DNA of 37,676 nt from a bacterium. Lineage in GTDB: Bacteria; Patescibacteriota; Saccharimonadia; Saccharimonadales; UBA4665. Both the position numbers and the translations under genes were made by a program. The notes beneath the pieces are model-generated. The model saw nothing but the letters and a program-made list of their open reading frames with translations, did not search any database and had not been told where the DNA came from. Positions within the stretch are counted from its first letter, which is position 1. Every line of letters starts with the position of its first letter. The DNA is taken from contig JBAXMV010000001.1 of assembly GCA_037134095.1 (NCBI GenBank), positions 1 to 37,676 on the forward strand, written 5' to 3'. Of this stretch, positions 8,766 to 21,015 are shown piece by piece.

Positions 8766-8840
8766 TGGGGCGTGGCCAAGTGGTAAGGCACTGGTTTTTG
8801 GTACCAGCATTCGGGGGTTCGAATCCCTCCGCCCCAGCCA
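8766..8840 (+). tRNA. tRNA-Gln (anticodon UUG), CCA encoded
   Basis: I folded the cloverleaf by hand. The acceptor is TGGGGCG/CGCCCCA (U1:A72, discriminator G73, as in bacterial tRNA-Gln), with D arm GCCA-AGTGGTA-AGGC. The anticodon stem is CTGGT/ACCAG with loop TTTTGGT, the T arm is GGGGG-TTCGAAT-CCCTC, and the 3' CCA is encoded. Confidence 0.93.
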
Positions 8841-8841
8841 C

Positions 8842-8902
8842 GATTTGCACCTAACAAGAACCGATTGCATAATATGCTTACTCAATCTGTTAGGCACAAA
8901 TC
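8842..8902. repeat. Imperfect 15-bp inverted repeat (13/15) with a 31-nt spacer directly 3' of the tRNA
   Basis: GATTTGCACCTAACA (8842-8856) pairs with TGTTAGGCACAAATC (8888-8902), which differs from the reverse complement of the first arm at 2 adjacent positions. Confidence 0.6.
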
Positions 8903-8905
8903 TTA

Positions 8906-9133
8906 CTAAAGCATCAAACCGGCTGAATTGCCGGTTTTAAGGTCTGTTAGCAATTCATTAAATACTGGTCTACATCCAGATTCTTTGGCGGAGTGGCTTT
9001 CGTGTTTAGTTTCCACGACGTTAAGACCATCACGTTCAGCAAATGCCAACATCTCTTTTAACTGCGAATCGATCGACATCGCTTGCCGTTCATCTTACTC
9101 ACTCGAATTTCGAGCATAAAGACAATATTTTAC
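8906..9133 (-). pseudogene. Serine recombinase (resolvase/invertase catalytic domain) remnant: N-terminal fragment with an in-frame stop, C-terminally truncated
   Basis: My minus-strand translation is VKYCLYARNSSE*DERQAMSIDSQLKEMLAFAERDGLNVVETKHESHSAKESGCRPVFNELLTDLKTGNSAGLML*. The YARxSS...DRQ..SI.SQ....A...G......E..SA......RP.F..LL....G pattern is the catalytic-Ser region of serine recombinases. No ATG start remains, and the remaining DRLSR and DNA-binding parts are absent. Confidence 0.7.
8916..8938 (+). terminator. Candidate intrinsic terminator after tRNA-Gln
   Basis: A perfect 8-bp stem AAACCGGC/GCCGGTTT with a 6-nt loop TGAATT runs into TTTT. It lies inside the recombinase remnant, so it could instead be coincidental coding-sequence symmetry. 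Confidence 0.35.
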
Positions 9134-9200: not shown

Positions 9201-9230
9201 TTGAATGTTCGAGTAAATGTTACCTACAAT
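9201..9230 (+). promoter_or_regulatory. Candidate promoter for the defence operon (TTGAAT-18 nt-TACAAT)
   Basis: The -35 TTGAAT is at 9201-9206 and the -10 TACAAT at 9225-9230, about 37 nt upstream of the ATG at 9267. This is a sequence match only. Confidence 0.3.
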
Positions 9231-9266
9231 GGTTTTTATATCTATAAAAGGGTTATAATAACCAGT

Positions 9267-10721
9267 ATGAAAATTAAACAGAGTACGCCGTATGCACCTT
9301 TACTAATAGAATCCATGCGTTCTCTAGGTTATTCCTTTGATACGGCAATTGCTGATTTGATTGATAATAGTGTTAGCGCGCAAGCAAAAAACATTAGTAT
9401 TCTACTCGATCCTTCGGATGATCCACAGCTTATAATTTTTGATGACGGTAATGGTATGGGCTCCGAAACATTAGAAGAAGCACTGCGTTTTGGAAGTCGA
9501 GGGCCTAACGAAACCCGAAGTGAGTTCGATCTTGGTCGATTTGGACTTGGACTTAAATCCGCTTCACTATCTCAATGTAGACGACTTATTGTTGCAAGTA
9601 AGCATGACGGGGCTCTCTGTTGCTATTCTTGGGACTTAGATGAAGTCGAGAAGACAGGTGATTGGTCAGTATTAGAATATTCACAAGATGAAATTATTCA
9701 ACTTCCTAATATTAGCCTATTTGATTCAGTAGAATCAGGCACCTATGTCTTACTTCAGAATTTTGACAGAATTTCTGCTTCTTCTAATGACGTAAAGAAG
9801 ACCCTTGATACTCTAATCGAAACAGCGGAAGATCATTTATCATTAGTTTTTCATCGTATTATTTCAGAAGACAAAGTCAGTATTTTTATTAATGGCCGAC
9901 TTATCGAGCCGAAAGATCCCTTTTTAGAAAATCATAAGTCTACACAACGTTTACGAGAGCAAAGCATTGCTATAGACGATAAAATGATCACCCTACAACC
10001 CTACATTTTGCCTCACCGGAATAAGCTATCTAGAGAAGATTTAAAAAAAGTTGGAGGCGCAGACGACCTTCGGACAAATCAAGGCTTCTATATTTACCGT
10101 TGCAAACGACTTATCATCTGGGGAACTTGGTTTAGATTGCTGAGCAAAGAAGAGTTGAATAAATTGGCACGCGTAAAAGTTGATATACCCAATTCAATCG
10201 ACGAAATTTGGAGTATTGATGTGAAAAAAAGTACAGCAAATTTACCAGAGAAAATTAGAAAAAATCTATATGGGAGTATTAAGGAATCAGTTTTTGGTAG
10301 CAAGAAAGTAATTGAGTACCGAAGTAAGCTTCGTAGAGACGAAGATATTCATTACGTGTGGCAAAGACTTACGGAAAGAGATGGTAGCATAGCTTATTCA
10401 ATCAATCGAGATTTGCCTCAAGTTCAAATGTTAACCGAAAACTTAGACAAAAATGGTATGCGAGTGCTTGAAACGCTTTTGCAAAATGTAGAAAATAACT
10501 TTCCGGCAAGTAGCGTATATCTTGATGTAGCAGATGGTGATTTACATTCATCGGTTGAAGATATAAATAAGTTGGCGGATGATCTCGAGGCTCAGCTACT
10601 ATATGCAGAGCAGCTTGGGTTTACTCATGATGAGCTTCTAAGCGTTTTACTTAAAACGGAGCCATATTCAAGGAACGAACAGTTGATAAATATGTATTCT
10701 AGAAGTCAGGAAAATAAATGA
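9267..10721 (+). CDS. GHKL (Bergerat-fold) ATPase, MORC/paraMORC-like (HATPase_c_3 type)
   Basis: It has the N-box AIADLIDNSVSA, G1 box FDDGNGMG and G2 box GRFGLGLKSAS. I prefer the ATG at 9267 (MKIKQSTPYAPLLIESMRSLGY) over the listed TTG at 9201. The stop overlaps the next start (ATGA at 10718-10721). Confidence 0.8.
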   Translation: MKIKQSTPYAPLLIESMRSLGYSFDTAIADLIDNSVSAQAKNISILLDPSDDPQLIIFDDGNGMGSETLEEALRFGSRGPNETRSEFDLGRFGLGLKSASLSQCRRLIVASKHDGALCCYSWDLDEVEKTGDWSVLEYSQDEIIQLPNISLFDSVESGTYVLLQNFDRISASSNDVKKTLDTLIETAEDHLSLVFHRIISEDKVSIFINGRLIEPKDPFLENHKSTQRLREQSIAIDDKMITLQPYILPHRNKLSREDLKKVGGADDLRTNQGFYIYRCKRLIIWGTWFRLLSKEELNKLARVKVDIPNSIDEIWSIDVKKSTANLPEKIRKNLYGSIKESVFGSKKVIEYRSKLRRDEDIHYVWQRLTERDGSIAYSINRDLPQVQMLTENLDKNGMRVLETLLQNVENNFPASSVYLDVADGDLHSSVEDINKLADDLEAQLLYAEQLGFTHDELLSVLLKTEPYSRNEQLINMYSRSQENK

Positions 10722-13405
10722 GTAGTGAAATTAAGAAATTTAAAGACATTGTCGGCAATATGGTAGGCATTGGAAACTCAGACTTATTGATTAGTGATAC
10801 AGATGTAGATAAAGCCATCGAAGATTTGTATTCCATTCGAGATAAAATGGGGATCAAAATTTCTGAAGCTGAGAAGGTTAAAGCAAGGAATGAATTACTA
10901 GCTAATATTAAAGTTAGACTTGAACCTGGCGTAGCAATTGTACCCACCGACCATAAAAAATGGTTTGAAGAGAGTAAGAATGAAATTATTTTTGAATATT
11001 GGGATAGATTTAAGACATATCTAGCTCAAGATAAAGGCATTGAATTAAACGTTATCTCAAAAATGGACAAAGTCTCAGATCAAGTAGTCGATCTGCTTGG
11101 CGACCCTAGGCGCGAAGAAGAAGAGCAGCGTCGTGGCTTGATAATCGGAGATGTTCAATCAGGCAAAACAATAAATTATAGCGGTATTATCTGCAAAGCT
11201 GTTGATGCCGGTTTTCGTATTGTGATACTTATGACAGGAACTACTAATGATCTTCGCTCCCAGACACAAATACGTTTAGACGAAGCGTTTTTGGGTATTG
11301 ATACAAGGGCAGCTGCTAAAGGAGGTGGGCGAGTTTTAGTTGGAGCAGGAAAATACAATCCGATCCCAACACCGATCGCATTTACATCTGTAGAAAAAGA
11401 TTTTAGCATTAGTGCAGTTAGGCAAATGACAACATCTCTGTCCAAAAACGCAAACGATAAACCAATGTTGTTTGTTATTAAGAAAAATGTTTCGGTTCTT
11501 AAAAACCTTCTCGAATGGATGGAGTCCTCTGGCAAATATGGAGATCAAAAAATTGATAACTCAGTGCTTGTCATTGACGATGAGGCTGATTACGCTTCAA
11601 TTAATACGAAAATAGCAGGTTCGGAACGAAGCAAAACAAACTATTTGATTGAAAAAATACTAAATATGTACCGATTTGCTAGCTATTCAGGCTTTACTGC
11701 TACACCTTATGCAAACATTTTCATCGATCCCGAAACCGACGAAGAATTGAATACAGAAGGACTTTTTCCCAAAGATTATATTTACTCTCTGAATTCACCA
11801 GACACTTACATAGGTGCTAGAAATATTTTCCCCAAAAATGCCACTTACCATTTTATCCTTCGAGATATAGAAGATGGTGAAGAATTTTATCCGTCTAAAC
11901 ACAAAAAAGACGATGACTTTAGTGTCCTGTCGGAAAGTTTAAAAAAGGCTGTGCGTACTTTCTTAATAGCTAATGTCATAAGGGATTTACGAGGAGATAA
12001 GACTGAACACAGGTCGATGATGATCAATGTTACCCGTTTTATTAATACGCAGAAGCTCGTCAGGAAAGCAGTTGCAGACTATGTAGGAGATATAAAGAGA
12101 TCGATCAAAACTTACGCGTTTCTACCCCAAGAAAAAGCGTTACTAGACGAAGAGTTGAATTTACTTTCTAAAACTTTTGCAGACGAATATTCATCACTTG
12201 ATTTCTCATGGGAACAAATACAGGTAAATCTATTCGGGTCAGTTAATGAAATTGAGGTACTTGCTACCTATGGCGGCGGTGATGATCTCAATTATCACGA
12301 GAACCCAGATGGTCTCAGAGCAATAGTTGTAGGAGGGATGAGACTTTCTCGCGGTTTGACGCTTGAAGGTTTAATTGTAACTTATATTTATCGTAACTCA
12401 ATGGCATATGACACCCTAATGCAGATGGGGCGTTGGTTTGGCTACAGACCAAACTATGGTGATATTTGCCGAATTTGGATGGATAAAAATAGTCAAGACT
12501 GGTACGAATATATATCAGATGCAACGGACGAATTACGTGCAGAAGTAAAACGCATGCGTGATATTGAATCCACGCCTTTAGACTTTGGCCTTAAGGTACG
12601 TAATGACACTGATATGAAGCTTACGATCACCGCACGAAATAAAATGCGAACTGCCAAAGAGAAATCTATCAATGTTTCGCTAAGTAAGGCGTACATTGAA
12701 ACGGCTTTCATTCATAACGATGCGAAAAAGAATAAAGCAAATCTAGCTGCGGTAAGTAACTTGATCAACAGCACTAATTTTGATAAATCAGACAATCAAT
12801 ATATAGCAGAACACGTTGATAAGAACTTAATAGTAAGATTACTTGAAACTATTGATATGCCGCCTACAAACGTACAATTTGACCCACTCTCGGTTGCTAA
12901 TTTTATAGAGCAATATGCAGGTGACGAGCTCAATGATTGGAATGTGGCTATAAAATCAGGAGATCACAAAAAAACTTACACCCTGCCGAACGGAATTTCA
13001 ATCAACCCAAATGATCGTTTGTTTGAATTAATTAGAGAAGATTGTGTTGTAAGAATGAATCGACGCAGGCTAGGAAGCCAAGGAGATGCGAAAACAGGTC
13101 TTAATATTGCCCAATTAGAATTGGTAAAAGAGATTGTCACAAGTAATCCAAATCGTAATTCATCGAATATTAACGACAAGGACTACTTCGCAATCAGTCG
13201 AAAACCACTGCTCCAAGTTTATTTTATTCAGCCTCGTCAAAAAAGCGAAGACTGGGATCGCCTTGCAGAATTTGATTCAATCCCATTAATAGGTTTTAGC
13301 GTTGGTATACCACCACTTGGTGACATTAAAACAAGGAATATTAGATATCAGATTAACAAAATACATCAGGACTTTGGTGGCATCGAGGAATTTGAAGATG
13401 AGTAA
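10718..13405 (+). CDS. Z1 domain protein with SF2 helicase-like P-loop NTPase core
   Basis: It has Walker A GDVQSGKT, DEAD-like Walker B VIDDEADYAS, motif III GFTATPYAN and the Z1 signature LMQMGRWFGYR. It is 895 aa, typical for Z1 proteins in R-M-linked operons. Confidence 0.8.
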   Translation: MSSEIKKFKDIVGNMVGIGNSDLLISDTDVDKAIEDLYSIRDKMGIKISEAEKVKARNELLANIKVRLEPGVAIVPTDHKKWFEESKNEIIFEYWDRFKTYLAQDKGIELNVISKMDKVSDQVVDLLGDPRREEEEQRRGLIIGDVQSGKTINYSGIICKAVDAGFRIVILMTGTTNDLRSQTQIRLDEAFLGIDTRAAAKGGGRVLVGAGKYNPIPTPIAFTSVEKDFSISAVRQMTTSLSKNANDKPMLFVIKKNVSVLKNLLEWMESSGKYGDQKIDNSVLVIDDEADYASINTKIAGSERSKTNYLIEKILNMYRFASYSGFTATPYANIFIDPETDEELNTEGLFPKDYIYSLNSPDTYIGARNIFPKNATYHFILRDIEDGEEFYPSKHKKDDDFSVLSESLKKAVRTFLIANVIRDLRGDKTEHRSMMINVTRFINTQKLVRKAVADYVGDIKRSIKTYAFLPQEKALLDEELNLLSKTFADEYSSLDFSWEQIQVNLFGSVNEIEVLATYGGGDDLNYHENPDGLRAIVVGGMRLSRGLTLEGLIVTYIYRNSMAYDTLMQMGRWFGYRPNYGDICRIWMDKNSQDWYEYISDATDELRAEVKRMRDIESTPLDFGLKVRNDTDMKLTITARNKMRTAKEKSINVSLSKAYIETAFIHNDAKKNKANLAAVSNLINSTNFDKSDNQYIAEHVDKNLIVRLLETIDMPPTNVQFDPLSVANFIEQYAGDELNDWNVAIKSGDHKKTYTLPNGISINPNDRLFELIREDCVVRMNRRRLGSQGDAKTGLNIAQLELVKEIVTSNPNRNSSNINDKDYFAISRKPLLQVYFIQPRQKSEDWDRLAEFDSIPLIGFSVGIPPLGDIKTRNIRYQINKIHQDFGGIEEFEDE

Positions 13406-14315
13406 TCCTATTGATCGTATTAGAAAGCTTCTCGAAGACCACACTAATGAGTCCTACCAGAGATATAGTGCAGAACACCCCCTAGATATTTATCTGGGTA
13501 CTGACCAATATGGCCGCAAAAGTTTGGCATTAATAATTGACGCTCGACGAGAAAGAATTACTTCAACTAAAACCATTGATGCTCAATTTTTTAAACGTGA
13601 TGACGGACAGCTAATGCTAGTATTCTCACTTATTGACGATCAATTAAAAGACATCTTTTATAAGTTTTGTGAGGACATTATCGAGAGTACTAGATTAAGC
13701 AATCAGGTAGAAGGATTTGCACCTGTCGTGGATCGTTGGAACACATGGATTAATTTTTTTTCAAAATCAGTACTCCCACTTTCAGAAAATGAAGTACTAG
13801 GTTTAGTCGGAGAAATATATTTCTTGCAAAATGTGATGATTGAAAAGTATGGTAAAGAACTTGCGTTAGACTCTTATATAGGTACAGATCGGGCGCATAA
13901 AGATTTTGAGGTAAAAAACACTTGGTATGAAATCAAAACCATTCACAACGGAATTCGAGCCGTTAAAATAAGTTCAATAGAACAACTAGATGCACCTAAT
14001 CCAGGCAATCTTGAGATAATTACATTTGACCAAAGCACAGCAACGTATGAGGGTAATATTACCTTAAATAAACTGATATCAGGCTTCAGGAGTACCCTAG
14101 AACGCAAATGGCAGCTTCTGTTTGATGAAAAAATGCGTAGAGCAAGTTATATAGAAGATGAACGTTATGACGAATATAATTTTGTGTTTGTAAGAATTGA
14201 CGAGTATTCCGTAGCTGATGATTTTCCAAAACTAACCAAAGAATTACTTCCTATGGGCGTTACTAAAGCCAGTTACGAGATAGATATATCTGTAATCGAA
14301 AGGTTTCGAACGTAA
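13398..14315 (+). CDS. PD-(D/E)XK motif protein (DUF4420-like putative nuclease)
   Basis: It has the core GLVGEIYFL...HKDFEVKNTWYEIKT (E...D-x-E-x-K). I prefer the start at ATG 13398 (MSNPIDRIRKLL), which overlaps the Z1 stop by 8 nt. The listed 13302 start would lie deep inside the Z1 CDS. Confidence 0.65.
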   Translation: MSNPIDRIRKLLEDHTNESYQRYSAEHPLDIYLGTDQYGRKSLALIIDARRERITSTKTIDAQFFKRDDGQLMLVFSLIDDQLKDIFYKFCEDIIESTRLSNQVEGFAPVVDRWNTWINFFSKSVLPLSENEVLGLVGEIYFLQNVMIEKYGKELALDSYIGTDRAHKDFEVKNTWYEIKTIHNGIRAVKISSIEQLDAPNPGNLEIITFDQSTATYEGNITLNKLISGFRSTLERKWQLLFDEKMRRASYIEDERYDEYNFVFVRIDEYSVADDFPKLTKELLPMGVTKASYEIDISVIERFRT

Positions 14316-14317
14316 CT

Positions 14318-16414
14318 ATGAATTTAGAAGATTTTCGCACAGATTGGGTAAGTGACTTACGGGTTGCCGCAGAAGCTAATCAAAGTGATCCTCATAGTGA
14401 GTTTGTTATTGATGCAATTGATCAGCTTCAAGAAGCAGAAGAAGTTGAAAACGTTGAACTTGGTTACTTCGAGGGCATTGGACCAAATAGAACCAAACTA
14501 ATGGTCGACGGCTATGCTTTTGATGTCGTTGATAAATCATGTGTCTTACTTCTGAGCGATTTTTCGAACAGTGGCGATCTCCAAACGCTTACTCGAACTG
14601 ATATTGATCGACTATATAACAACATGCGTAATCTTTTAGAAGCTTCCCTTAATGGCTATATTGTAGCTAACAAATTCGAAGAGAGTAGCATTGGATATAC
14701 CTTTGCAGTTGAAGCTAAACGACTTTTCGATAATGGTGAAATATCCAAGTTTAGGTTTTACATTCTTACCGACAAAAAGCTCAGTGAAACGGTAAAGAAT
14801 ATCCGAAAGGAACCCATAAATGGTAAGAGCGTAGACTTAAATGCATGGGATATAAATCGTTTTTATCATTTATTTACTTCAACTCAAGGTAAGGAAGAAA
14901 TTGAAATAGACGCCTCGACATTGCTTGGCGGTGGGATCCCATATGTCAGTGCTACCAAAGGAGAAGATTACTCTGCTTACCTCGCTGTAGTTCCAGGGCA
15001 GTTTCTTGCAGATATTTATCTTGAGTATGGTTCTAGGCTTCTTGAAGGAAATGTACGTTCATTTTTGAGCATACGTGGCAAAGTTAACAAAGCAATTCGC
15101 GGTACTATCTTACAGCACCCAGATCTATTCTTTGCTTATAATAACGGAATTGCAGCGACAGCAACATCAATTGAAACTACTAACATAAATGGTAACCATG
15201 TAATTACGAAGATTAATGATATGCAGATAATAAACGGCGGTCAGACTACTGCCTCGATTGCCAATGCTGTAATTCAGGATAAAGCTTCTCTTGAAGATGT
15301 GTATATACCGATGAAGTTATCTGTATTGGATCACGATAAAGCAAAAGATATGATCCCCAATATCTCCCGTAGTGCCAACAGCCAAAACAAGGTAGATGAA
15401 GCAGACTTCTTTTCTAACCATCCTTATCACGTGCGTATTGAGGAGTACTCTAGGCGAATACTTGCTCCACCAGTAGATGGGAATCAGTATCAAACAGCGT
15501 GGTTCTATGAACGTGCACGCGGCCAGTATGTACAAGAGCAGATGAAACTTACACGTTCAGAACGAAAACGCTACCAACTCAAAAACCCTAAGGCACAACT
15601 ATTACGTAAAGTTGATGTTGCCAAGTTTATCAACTCATATGAACAGAAGCCACACATCGTAAGTCGAGGCGCTCAGTTCAATATGAGAAACTTCGCAGAT
15701 TCTATTGGTAAACAATGGAGCCCGACTGATCAGAATACTAGCTTTAACGAATACTATTACAAGAAGTTAATTTCACTAGCCATAATATTCAAGACTACTG
15801 AGAAGATCGTAACTGCTCAGCAATGGTATCAGGAAATTAAAGCATATCGTGCGAACATTGTTACATATAGCATAGCTGTTATTATGCATTCGATTGAAAA
15901 GAAATACCCCGGTAAAACGATAGATTTTTTGCGAATATGGAATACCCAGTCGATTAGTCCACAACTTGAAGCTCAGATAGTTGAAACAACTCGTGAGGTA
16001 TTTGACTTCATTACACGTGACGAGAGGCCAACATTAAATGTTACACAGTGGTGTAAGCAAGAAGACTGTTGGAAACGTGTACAGGAATACAATTTTACGA
16101 TACTCGACAACTTTGCTGAATCGCTGGTGAATGCAAGCGATGAGCAAGAAGAAAAAGCTATTGCTCAGAAAGAGCAGAAAGTAAGCAATCAGATCAGTGC
16201 CGAAATTGAGATTATAAATCTGGGAACAGACTACTGGAAAAAAGTGTTAGATTTTGGCCGGAATGATAGGCTACTCAGTGAAATGGAAGATGGCCTTTTG
16301 AATGTAGCTGCTACTTTTGACACTACTGGTCGAGTTCCCTCGGACAAACAAGCAAAATTGATTATGCAAATTCGAAATCGCTTATTTGATGAAGGCTTGT
16401 CACGAAACATTTAA
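14318..16414 (+). CDS. AIPR (abortive infection phage resistance) family protein
   Basis: It has the conserved AIPR core motifs FFAYNNGIAATA and MQIINGGQTTASI, is 698 aa long, and starts 2 nt after the preceding stop. Confidence 0.75.
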   Translation: MNLEDFRTDWVSDLRVAAEANQSDPHSEFVIDAIDQLQEAEEVENVELGYFEGIGPNRTKLMVDGYAFDVVDKSCVLLLSDFSNSGDLQTLTRTDIDRLYNNMRNLLEASLNGYIVANKFEESSIGYTFAVEAKRLFDNGEISKFRFYILTDKKLSETVKNIRKEPINGKSVDLNAWDINRFYHLFTSTQGKEEIEIDASTLLGGGIPYVSATKGEDYSAYLAVVPGQFLADIYLEYGSRLLEGNVRSFLSIRGKVNKAIRGTILQHPDLFFAYNNGIAATATSIETTNINGNHVITKINDMQIINGGQTTASIANAVIQDKASLEDVYIPMKLSVLDHDKAKDMIPNISRSANSQNKVDEADFFSNHPYHVRIEEYSRRILAPPVDGNQYQTAWFYERARGQYVQEQMKLTRSERKRYQLKNPKAQLLRKVDVAKFINSYEQKPHIVSRGAQFNMRNFADSIGKQWSPTDQNTSFNEYYYKKLISLAIIFKTTEKIVTAQQWYQEIKAYRANIVTYSIAVIMHSIEKKYPGKTIDFLRIWNTQSISPQLEAQIVETTREVFDFITRDERPTLNVTQWCKQEDCWKRVQEYNFTILDNFAESLVNASDEQEEKAIAQKEQKVSNQISAEIEIINLGTDYWKKVLDFGRNDRLLSEMEDGLLNVAATFDTTGRVPSDKQAKLIMQIRNRLFDEGLSRNI

Positions 16415-16455
16415 TAGAGGTAAACACAAGGGGTATTGTGCTATAGTTATAACAT

Positions 16456-17751
16456 ATGCTTAAAGTAATTGAAACGTTCAGTGGAATTGGTGCTCAGTCA
16501 AAAGCACTTAAGAATATTGGGTGTAACTTTAAGATTATCGGAACAGCAGACTGGGACATACATGCGATCATTGCATATGATCTTATTCATAATGGTAAAC
16601 AAGATTTATCTCTGTACGAAAAAGCTACTCGTGAAGAGATGCTACAAAAATTAAAGAAATATACCCTCAGTATTGACGGTAAAGTTGCAGCAGACTGGAA
16701 AAATGTCAAAATATTGAACATGAAAGTGCTAAAGAGGCTTTGCGCTGCCATTGATAGAACCAACAACTACGTAAGTGTAACCGATATGAACGGGGCACTC
16801 TTGCCTGTTGATATGGATGCACTAACTTATTCCTTCCCTTGCCAGGACCTATCTGTAGCTCATGCATGGCATGGTAAAACCGAGGGTATAGATCGAAGCG
16901 CAGCAAACCGATCTAGCCAACTGTGGGAAATTGAACGTATCTTAATGGAACGTAAAGCAAGCCCAAGACCAATGCCAAAATTTCTTCTAATGGAAAATGT
17001 ACCCAATATAATTTCTAGTTCTCATAGCAAAAATTTTGATGAATGGAAGCAATCACTTAACGATCTAGGCTACTATAATCGTTTCAATCTACTCATTTCA
17101 AACAATTTTGGCACACCTCAAATCCGTAAAAGAGCATATCTAATGAGCTTCTATACGGGTGGCGATAAAAAGCTGGAATCTAAGCTGGATAAGTATTTTG
17201 CAACTAATAACTTAGAAGATGTACGCAAAAAACCTACAGAACTCTCTAAGTTTTTGAGGCTTAATTACGAAGAGGGCTCCTTTAGACAAGAGGCCGACGA
17301 ATCAGTGCCTAACGACACCCCTTCACGTCGAGATATATTTATAAAGAGTGTTAAATTATTCGACGGCATAAGTTATTCTGGTTATGTTAAAACGATCACC
17401 ACAAAGCAAGATCGAAGACCTTGCTCCGGTGTCATTGTGTATGACAATAAGCGCGTTGGTAAGAGCACATACAGATACTTAACGGCAAGAGAATGTCTTT
17501 TATTAATGGGGTTCGAAGATAAAGATTATGAAGCACTAATTGAAGGTAATTTTAAGAAAAATATAACGACAGACTTTTTCACTACGAGAAAGATAGTCAA
17601 GATGGCTGGCAATAGCATCGTCGTACAAGTATTAGAAGAGGTGTTCAAGCAAATGATATATGTAGATGAGCACATCCTCTCTAAGGCTACCGCCGAGTTA
17701 CCGATCGAAGAGTTGCAATTAGTCGGAGAGCATAGCCTCGCTACAATCTAG
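16456..17751 (+). CDS. DNA (cytosine-5)-methyltransferase
   Basis: It has a full motif set: I ETFSGIGAQ, IV TYSFPCQDLS, VI LLMENVPN, VIII TPQIRKRAYLMS, IX YLTARECLLLMGF and X AGNSIVVQVLE. A long variable region (TRD) lies between VIII and IX. Confidence 0.92.
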   Translation: MLKVIETFSGIGAQSKALKNIGCNFKIIGTADWDIHAIIAYDLIHNGKQDLSLYEKATREEMLQKLKKYTLSIDGKVAADWKNVKILNMKVLKRLCAAIDRTNNYVSVTDMNGALLPVDMDALTYSFPCQDLSVAHAWHGKTEGIDRSAANRSSQLWEIERILMERKASPRPMPKFLLMENVPNIISSSHSKNFDEWKQSLNDLGYYNRFNLLISNNFGTPQIRKRAYLMSFYTGGDKKLESKLDKYFATNNLEDVRKKPTELSKFLRLNYEEGSFRQEADESVPNDTPSRRDIFIKSVKLFDGISYSGYVKTITTKQDRRPCSGVIVYDNKRVGKSTYRYLTARECLLLMGFEDKDYEALIEGNFKKNITTDFFTTRKIVKMAGNSIVVQVLEEVFKQMIYVDEHILSKATAELPIEELQLVGEHSLATI

Positions 17752-17769
17752 TGGCATGCTACATCTCCT

Positions 17770-18981
17770 ATGAGCATTTATGAATTTGATGACTTAGCGA
17801 ACGCTCCATTGATAATCGATGCGGTATATAAAAGTAAAAGTACACTATTTGGAGACGGTCCGCTTGGTAAATTATTACCGAAGATAGGCAATCAGGGTGG
17901 TTTTAGGTGTGTTAGAAGACAGGACAGAAGCGGTCAACTTGCGTACATTGTTTTGTACACCACTGGCACAGAAATAGATTGGCCTGATTCACTTGATGTG
18001 GAGACGGGTGTATGGCGTTATTTTGGCGACAACAGAACCCCAGGGAAGTCATTACACGACACTTCCGCTAAAGGTAATCTCTATTTGAGCGAGATTTTTG
18101 CTAAGATCGATTCGCCAACTGAAAGAGCTGATATACCTCCATTCCTAATTTTTCAGTGGGCCGGGAATCAATTTGACGCAAAGTTTCTTGGAGTAGCTGC
18201 GCCAGGTAACCCAAATATTCCACCAGATAAGGAATTGAATGCTATATGGAGATCAAAGAAAGGAAGTAGATTTCAGAATTATGAAGCGTACTTTTCAGTA
18301 TTAGATACTGGCCGCGAAGAAATATCAAAAGAGTGGCTCAAACTCCTGATAAGTGATCATGAAAACAGTCTTTCATTTGCCCCTACGGCATGGAAGCAAT
18401 TTATAAAATTTGGTAGACAGGGCGTTAAGCCTCTTTTATCACCAAGAGGCTCCGAAATTCCGAACAAAGAACAACAATTGCCTCAAGATCCAAGTGAAAT
18501 AAAATTATTGCAGAAGATTCGAGACTATTACAAGGACAATCCATTCGATTTTGAGCTATGCTCTACAAAGATTGTCCAGATGATGGACAATAATTTTGGA
18601 CTGTTTGAGTTAACTCGTCCATGGCGTGATGGAGGTAGAGATGCTATAGGAAAATATAGAGTTGGTAATAATCATAGTCCCTTGTTAGTTGAATTCGCAC
18701 TTGAAGCTAAATGTTACTCGATGGACAATTCAGTTGGAGTCAAACCAATGTCGAGGTTAATCTCTAGGCTAAGGTATCGTCAGTTTGGTGTTTTAGTGAC
18801 TACTAGCTACGTACACTCACAAGCATATAAGGAGATTGTTGAGGACGGTCACCCCGTACTGATAATAAATGCGGCTGATATTGCTAAAATTCTTCGAAGT
18901 CAAGGCATCAACCATCATAACGTCGACGTATGGCTCAGCCAAATTGGGCAAAACAACATAGAAAATGAGAAAGTCGATTAG
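17770..18981 (+). CDS. Restriction endonuclease with a C-terminal Mrr-type PD-(D/E)XK domain and a putative SRA-like N-terminal reader domain
   Basis: The C-terminus GGRDAIGKY...LVEFALEAKCY...FGVLVTTSYVHSQAYKEI...PVLIINAADIAKIL matches the Mrr_cat pattern (D...ExK plus G.lvTTs.fs). The N-terminal AYIVLYTTGTEIDWPDSLDVETGVWRYFGDNR...HDTSAKGNLYL is patterned like the SRA core (AYSxVLxGGYxDDxDxGxxxxYTGxGG...DQKLxxxNxAL). Confidence 0.65.
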   Translation: MSIYEFDDLANAPLIIDAVYKSKSTLFGDGPLGKLLPKIGNQGGFRCVRRQDRSGQLAYIVLYTTGTEIDWPDSLDVETGVWRYFGDNRTPGKSLHDTSAKGNLYLSEIFAKIDSPTERADIPPFLIFQWAGNQFDAKFLGVAAPGNPNIPPDKELNAIWRSKKGSRFQNYEAYFSVLDTGREEISKEWLKLLISDHENSLSFAPTAWKQFIKFGRQGVKPLLSPRGSEIPNKEQQLPQDPSEIKLLQKIRDYYKDNPFDFELCSTKIVQMMDNNFGLFELTRPWRDGGRDAIGKYRVGNNHSPLLVEFALEAKCYSMDNSVGVKPMSRLISRLRYRQFGVLVTTSYVHSQAYKEIVEDGHPVLIINAADIAKILRSQGINHHNVDVWLSQIGQNNIENEKVD

Positions 18982-18983
18982 TT

Positions 18984-20339
18984 ATGACCATCTCCAAAAC
19001 AGATTACATGATGTTCCTCAAGCAACCTGCATGGTTGTGGCTAAAAAAGAATGACCCAAAAAAATTGCCACCAATTGATGAAAACACCCAGGCTTTATTT
19101 GATGCAGGTCATCAATTTGAACCTTATGCTGAATCATTATTTCCTGAAGGCGCTACGATTGGTTTTTCTGATTACAAAGAATATCTATCATTGCCGCAGA
19201 GAACACAAGATGCAATTAATAAGGGTGAACCTGTTTTATTTCAACCTCGTTTTGAATGGCTAGAGTTTACTTGCATATGTGACATAGTTAGCTTTGTAGT
19301 TGATAATGAAGTCGATCTCTATGAGATAAAAGCCAGCACTAGCGCCAAAGTCGAACACGAATTCGATCTTGCATTCCAGACTGCGGTGCTTGAAGGAGCG
19401 GGTCTGAAGGTACGAAACATTTTTGTTATTCACGTCAATAACCAGTACGTTCGAAATGGTCCGGTTGAGGCAGACAAGATAACAATCATCCAGGATGTAA
19501 CGAAAAAGGTTCGTAGCAGGGATGAAGTTACTGCCAAAAATATGTCGCTTGCTGTAGCTGCAGCTAAGCAGAAAACCATGCCCGATCCTTCCCCGACGCT
19601 TGCCAAGCTGGGCTCAAAAAACGATTGGCTTCAAGTTTATGAAAATATTGTGCCTCAAGCACGTATTGAATACCCTGCCAATACTAGACCTACGATCAAG
19701 CACGAATATATAAAAGCATTCTTGGAAGATCTTACGTATCCACTTTACTTTCTTGACTATGAAACCATGAAGGGACTTATCCCTTACTTTGATGGACATC
19801 GACCATACCAACAAGTTCCGTTCCAGTATTCGCTCCACATTATTCAGGAGCTTGGAGGAGATGTTGAGCATCGTGAATTCTTACACCGCGAAAATTCAGA
19901 TCCCTCACGATCACTAGTTGAGAAACTAATATATGATGTAGGCAAAGAAGGCACTATCTTAGTTTGGTACGAACAATTTGAAAAGAGCCGTAACAGCGAG
20001 CTTGGTGAAATGTACCCAGAATATATTCAAGATATGGAATCTATAAATGACAGAGTTGTTGATCTAATCATTCCATTTAAGAAGAAATGGTACGATGATC
20101 CCCGCTTTGAAGGCAGTGCAAGTATTAAACATGTACTGCCAGTACTATGCCCAGACTTAAGCTATAAATCATTAGGGATACAAGAGGGCGGATCCGCACA
20201 ACGTCTTTGGATGGAAGCTGTGCTAGACGATAAACGCTCTGATCAAAAGGAAACAATACTCAGTGACCTAATTGAATACTGCAAACTTGATACATTAGCC
20301 ATGGTAGAAATATTCAAAAAGCTCTTGGAGGTAACATGA
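18984..20339 (+). CDS. DUF2779 domain protein (N-terminal RecB/Cas4-like PD-(D/E)XK nuclease fused to a C-terminal RNase H-fold/DEDD-like domain)
   Basis: The N-terminus ISKTDYMMFLKQPAWLWL and VDLYEIKAST (ExK) mark the nuclease. The DUF2779 signature is YPLYFLDYETM...PYQQVPFQYSLHI, and a late acidic motif YCKLDTLAMVEIF follows. It starts 2 nt after the REase stop. Confidence 0.7.
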   Translation: MTISKTDYMMFLKQPAWLWLKKNDPKKLPPIDENTQALFDAGHQFEPYAESLFPEGATIGFSDYKEYLSLPQRTQDAINKGEPVLFQPRFEWLEFTCICDIVSFVVDNEVDLYEIKASTSAKVEHEFDLAFQTAVLEGAGLKVRNIFVIHVNNQYVRNGPVEADKITIIQDVTKKVRSRDEVTAKNMSLAVAAAKQKTMPDPSPTLAKLGSKNDWLQVYENIVPQARIEYPANTRPTIKHEYIKAFLEDLTYPLYFLDYETMKGLIPYFDGHRPYQQVPFQYSLHIIQELGGDVEHREFLHRENSDPSRSLVEKLIYDVGKEGTILVWYEQFEKSRNSELGEMYPEYIQDMESINDRVVDLIIPFKKKWYDDPRFEGSASIKHVLPVLCPDLSYKSLGIQEGGSAQRLWMEAVLDDKRSDQKETILSDLIEYCKLDTLAMVEIFKKLLEVT

Positions 20340-20604: not shown

Positions 20605-20913
20605 ATGAATTTAACTATCGAGTGCATTCGTCTCTATTATCTTGCAAAGGATAGCCCACTATTTAGTACTCTGAAACGTCATGGCAACTTTTTTGATATA
20701 TTTCAGGATTTCAGGGGCTTCGATGAGTTCTTTTTGCTACAAGATGCTGTATCCGAAGACTTTCAATCAGTAAATATCGCTGTGCCTTTTGATGAATTTA
20801 TGTCACCGCCAATTCCAAAAAACCTAGATGAGTATAGGAATTATCTGGATTCGACGGCAGAATTTGTGATAAAAAGAGGTCAAAGAATTGAGAAATATGT
20901 AAAGAGTGCATAA
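20605..20913 (+). CDS. Hypothetical protein (102 aa), possibly a 5'-truncated remnant
   Basis: The ORF carries no motif I recognise. It is acidic and aromatic-rich (FFDIFQDFRGFDEFFLLQDAV), has no SD, and its frame opens only 10 codons upstream of the ATG. Confidence 0.35.
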   Translation: MNLTIECIRLYYLAKDSPLFSTLKRHGNFFDIFQDFRGFDEFFLLQDAVSEDFQSVNIAVPFDEFMSPPIPKNLDEYRNYLDSTAEFVIKRGQRIEKYVKSA

Positions 20914-20985: not shown

Positions 20986-21015
20986 AAACTCGTCAGTTGG
21001 ACGAGTTTTTTATTT
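20986..21015 (+). terminator. Rho-independent terminator at the right end of the island (may also serve the convergent lipase gene weakly)
   Basis: A 9-bp stem AAACTCGTC/GACGAGTTT with loop AGTTG is followed by TTTATTT. It lies between convergent genes ending at 20913 (+) and 21025 (-). Confidence 0.6.

Follow-up and report, generated by a model that had tools for sequence, protein, structure and literature searches.

Which known system, if any, is represented by five consecutive genes for a MORC-like ATPase, a Z1 helicase-like protein, a DUF4420 nuclease, an AIPR protein and a C5 cytosine methyltransferase, and how would such a set tell the DNA of its host from that of a phage? The question is raised by positions 9267–17751 of contig JBAXMV010000001.1, which was analysed as a window of 37,676 nucleotides (nt; the whole stretch of DNA, forward strand), and for which an original prediction, made without database searches, had proposed a methylation-linked defence system with no known mechanism. 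Compared by sequence, the locus is an intact, methylase-linked relative of the Mza anti-phage system. It is a sibling subtype and not Mza in the strict sense, because it has no MzaA, has a C5 methylase, and its four Mza-like proteins reach 21–37% of the NCBIfam cut-offs, which falls short of similarity at the equivalog level. The architecture has already been described and the kind of its four effector genes is known.

All five genes lie on the + strand. Gene 1 (9267–10721, 484 amino acids [aa]) encodes a GHKL/MORC-type ATPase that matched Pfam HATPase_c_3 (PF13589, E = 3e-34) and PADLOC MzaB (8e-70) and contains the motifs ADLIDNSVSA, DDGNGMG and GRFGLGLKSAS. Its longest open reading frame (ORF) starts with TTG at 9201; the ATG at 9267 is favoured as the start because the homologues are 480–484 aa long. 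Gene 2 (10718–13405, 895 aa) encodes a DEAD-Z1 superfamily 2 (SF2) motor protein with matches to Pfam Z1 (PF10593, 2e-70) and PADLOC MzaC (3e-114) and with the motifs GDVQSGKT, VIDDEADYAS, TATP and MGRWFGYR. Gene 3 (13398–14315, 305 aa) encodes a DUF4420 PD-(D/E)XK nuclease (PF14390, 6e-50; PADLOC MzaD, 4.5e-19) with the nuclease core HKDFEVKNTWYEIKT, and gene 4 (14318–16414, 698 aa) encodes a protein composed of AIPR_N (PF22879, 1e-30) and AIPR (PF10592, 1e-98), containing NNGIAATA and INGGQTT. Gene 5 (16456–17751) encodes the C5 cytosine DNA methyltransferase (PF00145, 8e-47; NCBIfam dcm, 134 bits against a cut-off of 100.65) with the motifs FSGIG, PCQ, ENV, QxRxR and GN. Genes 1 and 2 overlap by ATGA (10718–10721) and genes 2 and 3 by ATGAGTAA (13398–13405), whereas genes 3 and 4 are separated by 2 nt (CT, 14316–14317) and genes 4 and 5 by 41 nt (16415–16455). 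The coordinates of the five ORFs and their junctions in the original prediction were exact, every motif that it quoted was found at the expected residues, its domain assignments were correct for all genes, and the profile search that it had called for recovered the five predicted Pfam families with E values from 3e-34 to 1e-98.

The best models of PADLOC and NCBIfam agreed in naming genes 1–4 as MzaB, MzaC, MzaD and MzaE in the same order, and the PADLOC matches support the defence role that had been proposed. For direct comparison, the E. coli mzaABCDE sequence was taken from the supplement of bioRxiv 10.1101/2022.06.16.496414 and searched against E. coli genomes, in which the annotation pipeline PGAP annotates mzaA to mzaE. 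In BLASTP, gene 1 was 39% identical to the N-terminal and 26% to the C-terminal fragment of an E. coli MzaB that is split by an insertion sequence (IS), and the identities were 31% for MzaC (896 aligned positions), 26% for MzaD and 31% for MzaE. When E. coli MzaA was used as tblastn query against the whole 37.7-kb window, nothing was found at E ≤ 1, and no ORF upstream of gene 1 could encode MzaA. The AIPR protein of gene 4 does not stand as a single-gene AbiU-type system; it sits in an invariant four-gene block, and its match to MzaE (2e-70) is stronger than that to AbiU (1e-21). The E. coli locus used as reference (L088, NZ_CP025840.1, 3880795–3901587) has mzaB split by IS421, and Mza is probably inactivated there; immediately after its mzaA come a Mrr_cat endonuclease and a further PD-(D/E)XK protein. 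Matches to Mza were present in 56 of 5,426 complete E. coli genomes and were always chromosomal.

The association of these genes was then examined across related loci. At E ≤ 1e-10, a search gave over 6,000 relatives of the Z1 protein. When species-representative genomes were scanned, at least 591 loci came back, 80 of which were kept, and 87 loci (designated by L-numbers) were analysed in all, their ORFs being classified with iterated hidden Markov models built from the window proteins. The 80 loci from species representatives are spread over Saccharibacteria, Bacillota, Pseudomonadota, Chloroflexota, Acidobacteriota, Planctomycetota, Nitrospirota and other phyla. Throughout the 87 loci the order MORC-Z1-DUF4420-AIPR on one strand was invariant, the few departures (loci with no MORC or DUF4420 call) being mainly at contig ends, and because the same four genes recur in the same order, the cluster is far beyond chance. 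The core of Z1 helicase, DUF4420/restriction-endonuclease-fold protein and C5 methylase is complete in the window together with the AIPR and MORC-type GHKL accessories, which were present in essentially all 87 loci. Homologues of MzaA were found in two of them (L013 and L086). The closest relatives of the locus are metagenome-assembled genomes of Saccharibacteria, which makes the earlier remark on a reduced genome plausible; the island lies in a probable Saccharibacteria genome.

The methylation link that had been claimed was borne out by the same survey. Of the 58 loci in which the block was complete and flanked by 3 kb or more on both sides, 57 had a C5 methylase within 3 kb, and in the remaining one it was 4.7 kb away. 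The methylase was placed upstream on the same strand in 32 cases, downstream on the same strand in 29, downstream on the opposite strand in 12 and upstream on the opposite strand in 3. Furthermore, Vsr occurred alongside the methylase in 51 of the 87 loci, and this co-occurrence argues that the methylase modifies the host chromosome. In the window itself no Vsr gene was found; the family does not require one.

What such a block can do is partly known from its relatives. Gao et al. in 2020 reportedly validated mzaABCDE of Salmonella enterica and E. coli as an anti-phage system. Protection against phage by mzaABCDE of both species is described in bioRxiv 10.1101/2022.06.16.496414, where Wang et al. 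measured 10^3- to 10^4-fold protection by E. coli Mza against T4 carrying cytosine or hydroxymethylcytosine, with weaker protection against T4 carrying glucosylated hydroxymethylcytosine. In the same study purified E. coli MzaD cut DNA in vitro and was needed for full activity, and its D187A and P297A substitutions caused partial loss of function; these two residues appear to be the putative counterparts of the conserved D169 and P277 of gene 3. The statement in the original prediction that no phage-challenge or biochemical characterisation was known to it is therefore out of date; PGAP, moreover, names the genes. Earlier, Iyer et al. (2008; PMC2292703) had described MORC operons with a distinct SFII helicase bearing Z1, an E-D-ExK nuclease, cytosine methylases, Vsr and AIPR, and predicted on computational grounds a role in restriction-modification. 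Miller et al. (2022; PMC9523054), in a study that was likewise computational only, defined a putative "type II" defence system with a core of Z1, DUF4420 and cytosine methylase plus AIPR and MORC, and reported about 20% identity of this type to MzaBCDE.

The motor protein gave a further hint to the mechanism. Residues 141–576 of gene 2 could be aligned at 24% identity (E = 1e-15) with the Z1 protein of a gonococcal NgoAVII-type operon, which encodes a C5 methylase, an NgoFVII-type nuclease composed of phospholipase D (PLD) and B3 domains, and this Z1 subunit. Gene 2 also has the DEAD box and, as in H.CglI, the atypical Walker A motif GxxQSGKT and the motif VI QxxR in its DEAD-Z1 part, which are the marks of the CglI/NgoAVII H subunit. 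Toliusis et al. showed that both the atypical Walker A and motif VI (QxxR) of H.CglI are functional, and the DEAD-Z1 subunit of CglI is an ATP-driven translocase on double-stranded DNA that activates its partner nuclease (PMC5861437). The ATPase/translocase/nuclease logic of the original prediction fits these observations. No match to RE_NgoFVII or RE_NgoFVII_C, the families of the PLD nuclease and its B3 DNA-binding domain, was found by Pfam in the seven island proteins (genes 1–5 and the two that follow them).

We therefore favour, as the somewhat more probable account, a methylase-linked system of the Mza family in which the MORC-like GHKL ATPase, the DEAD-Z1 motor, the DUF4420 nuclease and AIPR make up an ATP-driven translocating complex that restricts DNA without the 5-methylcytosine (5mC) of the host. 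The methylase would put 5mC on host DNA as the mark of self, and the four effector proteins would form the ATP-dependent complex. Its DEAD-Z1 motor, to judge from its homology to known motors, would translocate along DNA, and the PD-(D/E)XK subunit would cut DNA without the host 5mC marks.

The conservation of individual proteins, computed over 70 non-redundant loci with a threshold of at least 95%, is in agreement with intact enzymes, as the catalytic residues of all five proteins pass that threshold. In gene 1 the conserved positions are D30, N34, D59xGxG and the G90–G95/K97 box, and residues 24–120 matched MORC2, MORC3 and MORC4 in the PDB (E = 1e-5). In gene 2 they are the Walker A GxVQSGKT, DDExD, TATP and Q569xxR572. 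In gene 3 they are E139, D169, E178 and K180, and the AlphaFold2 model of this protein (predicted local distance difference test [pLDDT] 88, predicted template-modelling score 0.82) places the E-D-ExK residues on a helix, a strand and a strand. Motifs I, IV, VI, VIII and X of gene 5 are conserved, and in gene 4 the number of conserved residues is 57, many of them polar. Searches of the PDB with sequence or profile gave no match for gene 2 or gene 4.

The invariant polar residues of gene 4 suggest, as a reading of the alignment, an enzymatic or ligand-binding activity, and they bear on the proposal that AIPR is a suicide effector, released in abortive infection by a sensor made of the ATPase, the helicase and the nuclease. 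The name of the AIPR family and the PADLOC match to AbiU also speak for this proposal, whose suicide or abortive AIPR was part of the original prediction. We consider it improbable because of the E. coli growth curves: cells with Mza showed no growth arrest at any multiplicity of infection (MOI) between 0.05 and 5, from which the authors inferred that phage DNA is targeted directly (bioRxiv 10.1101/2022.06.16.496414). The closer match of the protein to MzaE than to AbiU points the same way, and no toxin-like fold was found among the Foldseek results for the gene 4 model (AlphaFold2, pLDDT 71, with a good N-terminal domain).

If the methylase and the effectors formed a sequence-specific pair, traces of their co-evolution might be looked for in pairwise protein distances, which were correlated by the mirror-tree approach. 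The four effector proteins co-vary with each other at r = 0.90–0.92, and with the methylase at r of about 0.5. A clear replacement is seen in the pair L052 and L069: the effectors are 73–84% identical, yet identity between the methylases is 25% over the whole protein and 16% across the target-recognition region, and the two methylase genes flank the block on different sides. Similarly, where blocks are clustered by Z1 proteins that share 60% identity or more, one such cluster may hold as many as three methylase clusters, with identities below 40% between them. The small partial correlations that remained favoured the neighbour of the methylase, with MORC highest if the methylase is upstream and AIPR highest if it is downstream, and because this excess tracks physical adjacency to the methylase, it indicates recombinational linkage and not function. 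No localised hypervariable segment resembling a target-recognition region was found in the pairs with swapped methylases. In the window, an extended −10-like box TGCTATAGT (TGnTATAGT; 16439–16447, + strand) ends 8 nt before the ATG of gene 5. The four effector genes make up a single translationally coupled unit; the methylase is exchanged separately from it, as a module that probably has a promoter of its own. The claim that all five genes form one coupled unit is not supported, in view of the varying side and strand of the methylase, the difference in correlation and this promoter-like box.

Several points weigh against the favoured account. The scores behind the family assignment are well under the equivalog cut-offs, with 310 of 850 bits for MzaB (E = 1.5e-92), 475 of 1500 for MzaC, 90 of 420 for MzaD and 330 of 1050 for MzaE. 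The parts given to two subunits are guesses, namely that the GHKL dimer would act as an ATP-gated clamp or looping switch, a role that Iyer et al. had proposed as an ATP-controlled clamp or looping element (PMC2292703), and that AIPR would be an essential, non-suicidal accessory serving as a sensor of DNA or its modification or as a scaffold. Foldseek found no significant neighbour in the PDB for the gene 3 model, the top results being spurious kinases; what supports the PD-(D/E)XK assignment is the Pfam match together with the conserved E-D-ExK residues and the places where these fall in the secondary structure. For the gene 4 model the best E value against the PDB was not below 0.8; the restriction-endonuclease-fold nucleases scattered among its results were non-significant and were discounted as evidence. 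No experiments on methylase-linked variants, or on this locus, were found in the literature searched. In the mirror-tree analysis of whole proteins and of 60-aa windows, no effector region that could mark a specificity subunit had a partial r with the methylase above 0.23, an absence of co-variation that would not be expected of a restriction-modification pair of the classical, cognate and sequence-specific kind. Finally, E. coli Mza is active without an adjoining methylase, and the effector block may thus be able to tolerate self DNA without any methylation.

The exchange of methylases leaves room for a variant of the proposal, possible and yet clearly the less probable form, in which the effector complex reads 5mC itself or its density and not the recognition sequence of the methylase. 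Unrelated methylases could then serve the same effector block because frequent C5 methylation, whatever its sequence, would switch the complex off. The L052/L069 pair, the several methylase clusters that go with closely similar Z1 proteins, and the lack of any effector segment that follows the methylase swaps are what this variant would lead one to expect. On the other hand, dissimilar methylases may have the same target, tests of co-variation would miss a specificity set by a few residues, Pfam detected in genes 1–4 none of the known domains that read 5mC (such as SRA or EVE), and E. coli Mza has no linked methylase.

The E. coli system bears as well on the view that the four-gene block is self-contained and makes its choice between self and non-self independently of methylation, with the methylase being a neighbour that has another purpose (an orphan, an anti-restriction enzyme or the partner of nearby genes). 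With MzaA and without any methylase within 10 kb, E. coli Mza is nevertheless active and non-toxic, and the weak co-evolution of the methylase with the block, its variable position and strand and its probable own promoter would all suit a mere neighbour. We regard this view as unlikely, as it is hard to explain without functional dependence why the methylase adjoins the block in nearly every locus across phyla despite repeated replacement. The co-occurrence of Vsr points to a real modification of the host genome, and autoimmunity must be prevented by some means other than MzaA, which is rare among the loci and missing from the window.

If the variant is carried to its end, the MORC/Z1/DUF4420/AIPR effector would be a sequence-agnostic sensor of cytosine methylation, responding to the presence or density of 5mC along the DNA that it translocates. 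We put this forward tentatively, as a rather doubtful idea, and it can be entertained because the same effector block pairs with unrelated, freely exchanged C5 methylases. If it were true, the locus would represent a restriction logic unlike Types I–IV, the effector would offer a precedent among prokaryotes for the connection that eukaryotes show between MORC ATPases and DNA methylation, and the sigma-factor-bearing Mza of enterobacteria would be a derived version in which methyl-marking was replaced by transcriptional gating.

Two further genes follow on the same strand. Gene 6 (17770–18981), 18 nt after the methylase, encodes an AspBHI-like, 5mC-dependent restriction endonuclease (PDB 4oc8, AspBHI, 5e-96; Pfam RE_AspBHI_N and Mrr_cat; PADLOC mREase_II, 1e-141), and gene 7 (18984–20339), after a gap of 2 nt, encodes a DUF2779/RecB-like putative nuclease (Pfam DUF2779, 5e-42; NCBIfam UU173 family, 3e-20, which is below the cut-off). 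The extent given to the cluster in the original prediction was right for genes 1–5, but its end coordinate leaves out these two co-directional genes. Enzymes like gene 6 were also found in L001, L002 and L030 (the corresponding regions are L090 17044–18204, L001 17063–18256 and L030 5801–8367), and in L030 a DUF2779 gene again follows the AspBHI-like gene. Gene 6 is probably a separate defence gene that is co-inherited with the methylase, and the position of an enzyme that makes 5mC next to one that cuts at 5mC implies that their specificities must not overlap.

The target of gene 5 was approached through its full-length PDB match to 4dkj/8c56 ("cytosine-specific methyltransferase", E = 4e-42), which we take to be M.MpeI, a CpG methylase; the match was judged too distant to assign a target. 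The observed/expected ratio of CpG is 0.88. YSCGS, the site that concerns AspBHI under the assumption of a CpG-specific methylase, occurs 159 times against 243 ± 16 expected and is thus depleted but still common.

A comparison of window positions 9267–18981 with L090 (8550–18204) showed that the cassette is not uniform within its own clade. The identities were 83% for gene 1, 69% for gene 2, 74% for gene 3, 92% for gene 4, 95% for gene 5 and 96% for gene 6, and the first ~120 aa and residues ~200–240 of Z1 were only 27–55% identical to those of L090 (and L003), divergence being greatest in the N-terminal part of Z1. This mosaic points to intra-operon recombination or to diversifying selection on the motor and the nuclease, for which phage inhibitors may be a driver.

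The surroundings of the cassette tell of its arrival. A tRNA-Gln (UUG) gene found by ARAGORN (8766–8840, + strand) forms the left edge of the island, 427 nt before the block, and is followed by a 75-aa remnant of a serine recombinase on the − strand (8912–9133), which was 41% identical in tblastn to residues 8–82 of the L003 recombinase (E = 2e-15 for a 700-nt region and 9e-13 for the whole window; Pfam Resolvase was weak, E = 1e-3, for the ORF 8906–9079). Intact large serine recombinases lie upstream of the same cassette in L001–L005 and L090. Because this N-terminal remnant lies between the tRNA-Gln and the block and intact relatives are found at that place elsewhere, the island is concluded to have arrived on a serine-recombinase element whose integrase has since been lost, and 8766–9133 has the look of a scar left where a defence island inserted that can no longer move. 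A search for an att-type direct repeat matching the 3' end of the tRNA, which would have marked the right border, found none. At the right island edge, an ORF at 20605–20913 matches only the C-terminal part of Pfam DUF6994 (133–226 of 226) and appears to be a truncated gene, located before a terminator-like hairpin. The GpC observed/expected ratio is 1.44 outside and 1.16 inside the island, and that of CpG is 0.83 outside and 0.98 inside, a difference in composition that is consistent with recent acquisition.

The reduction of the recombinase and the truncation of the neighbouring DUF6994 gene could be taken to mean that the whole cluster is the relic of a mobile element, in decay and no longer functional. 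Such decay is very improbable, since all seven ORFs are full length relative to their homologues, the catalytic motifs are intact, and near-identical cassettes are present in other metagenomes (L090).

With regard to expression, a TATAAT hexamer read from the sequence (9254–9259, + strand) lies 7 nt before the ATG of gene 1, and the DNA homology to L090 begins at 9254. No Shine-Dalgarno sequence precedes any of the seven genes. These features, read from the DNA, suggest leaderless starts and a separate promoter for the methylase. A scan for sigma-70 promoters gave 33 matches, which is no excess over the 37.2 ± 7.3 in shuffled sequence, and adds no information. The first strong + strand hairpin after the block is the terminator-like one at 20986–21008, with a 9-bp stem and a T run; no comparable + strand terminator was found within 9267–20339, and the only two other + strand hairpins (10329–10344 and 12414–12430, inside genes 1 and 2) have stems of 5–6 bp and no T run.

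As a discovery the locus adds little, the architecture having been published in 2008, the methylase-less relative validated in 2020 and the genes being named by annotation pipelines. What it sharpens is the question of how the host is spared, since an invariant effector block is joined by a C5 methylase that is near-obligatory and yet freely swapped without detectable co-variation. In addition, episymbiotic, small-genome bacteria like Saccharibacteria retain an 11-kb defence stack of a Mza-type system, a methylase and a 5mC-dependent nuclease, which bears on the phage pressure in this group.

Among known systems, there are the eukaryotic MORC2, MORC3 and MORC4, which share with gene 1 the GHKL ATP-binding N-terminus and nothing further, as gene 1 is without the CW zinc-finger, coiled-coil and chromatin-reader domains of the eukaryotic proteins. 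CglI and NgoAVII have in common with the locus a C5 methylase and a DEAD-Z1 motor with the unusual Walker A GxxQSGKT, DDEAD, TATP and QxxR, and the logic of a translocase that triggers a separate nuclease is likely common to both. Their nuclease, however, is a PLD enzyme with a B3 DNA-reading domain, whereas that of the window is a PD-(D/E)XK protein of DUF4420; their Z1 protein has 629 aa against 895 aa here, the two differ towards both the N- and the C-terminus, the window protein gave no match to the solved C-domain of H.CglI, and the locus has two subunits, GHKL and AIPR, beyond theirs. E. coli and Salmonella Mza differs in that the E. coli system begins with MzaA (ankyrin and sigma-70, 683 aa) and has no methylase within 10 kb, while the window has a C5 methylase and no MzaA, and in that the identities to the E. 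coli proteins are 26–39%; it is alike in its homologues of MzaB to MzaE, their order, the overlapping genes and a tRNA-adjoining mobile or defence-island setting. Nothing essential separates the locus from the DCM-(Vsr)-MORC-SFII(Z1)-RE-fold-AIPR operons of Iyer et al. (2008; PMC2292703) and the "type II" system of Miller et al. (2022; PMC9523054); the window copy is without Vsr and without the putative transcriptional regulator and is followed by the AspBHI-like enzyme, and the gene content is otherwise identical.

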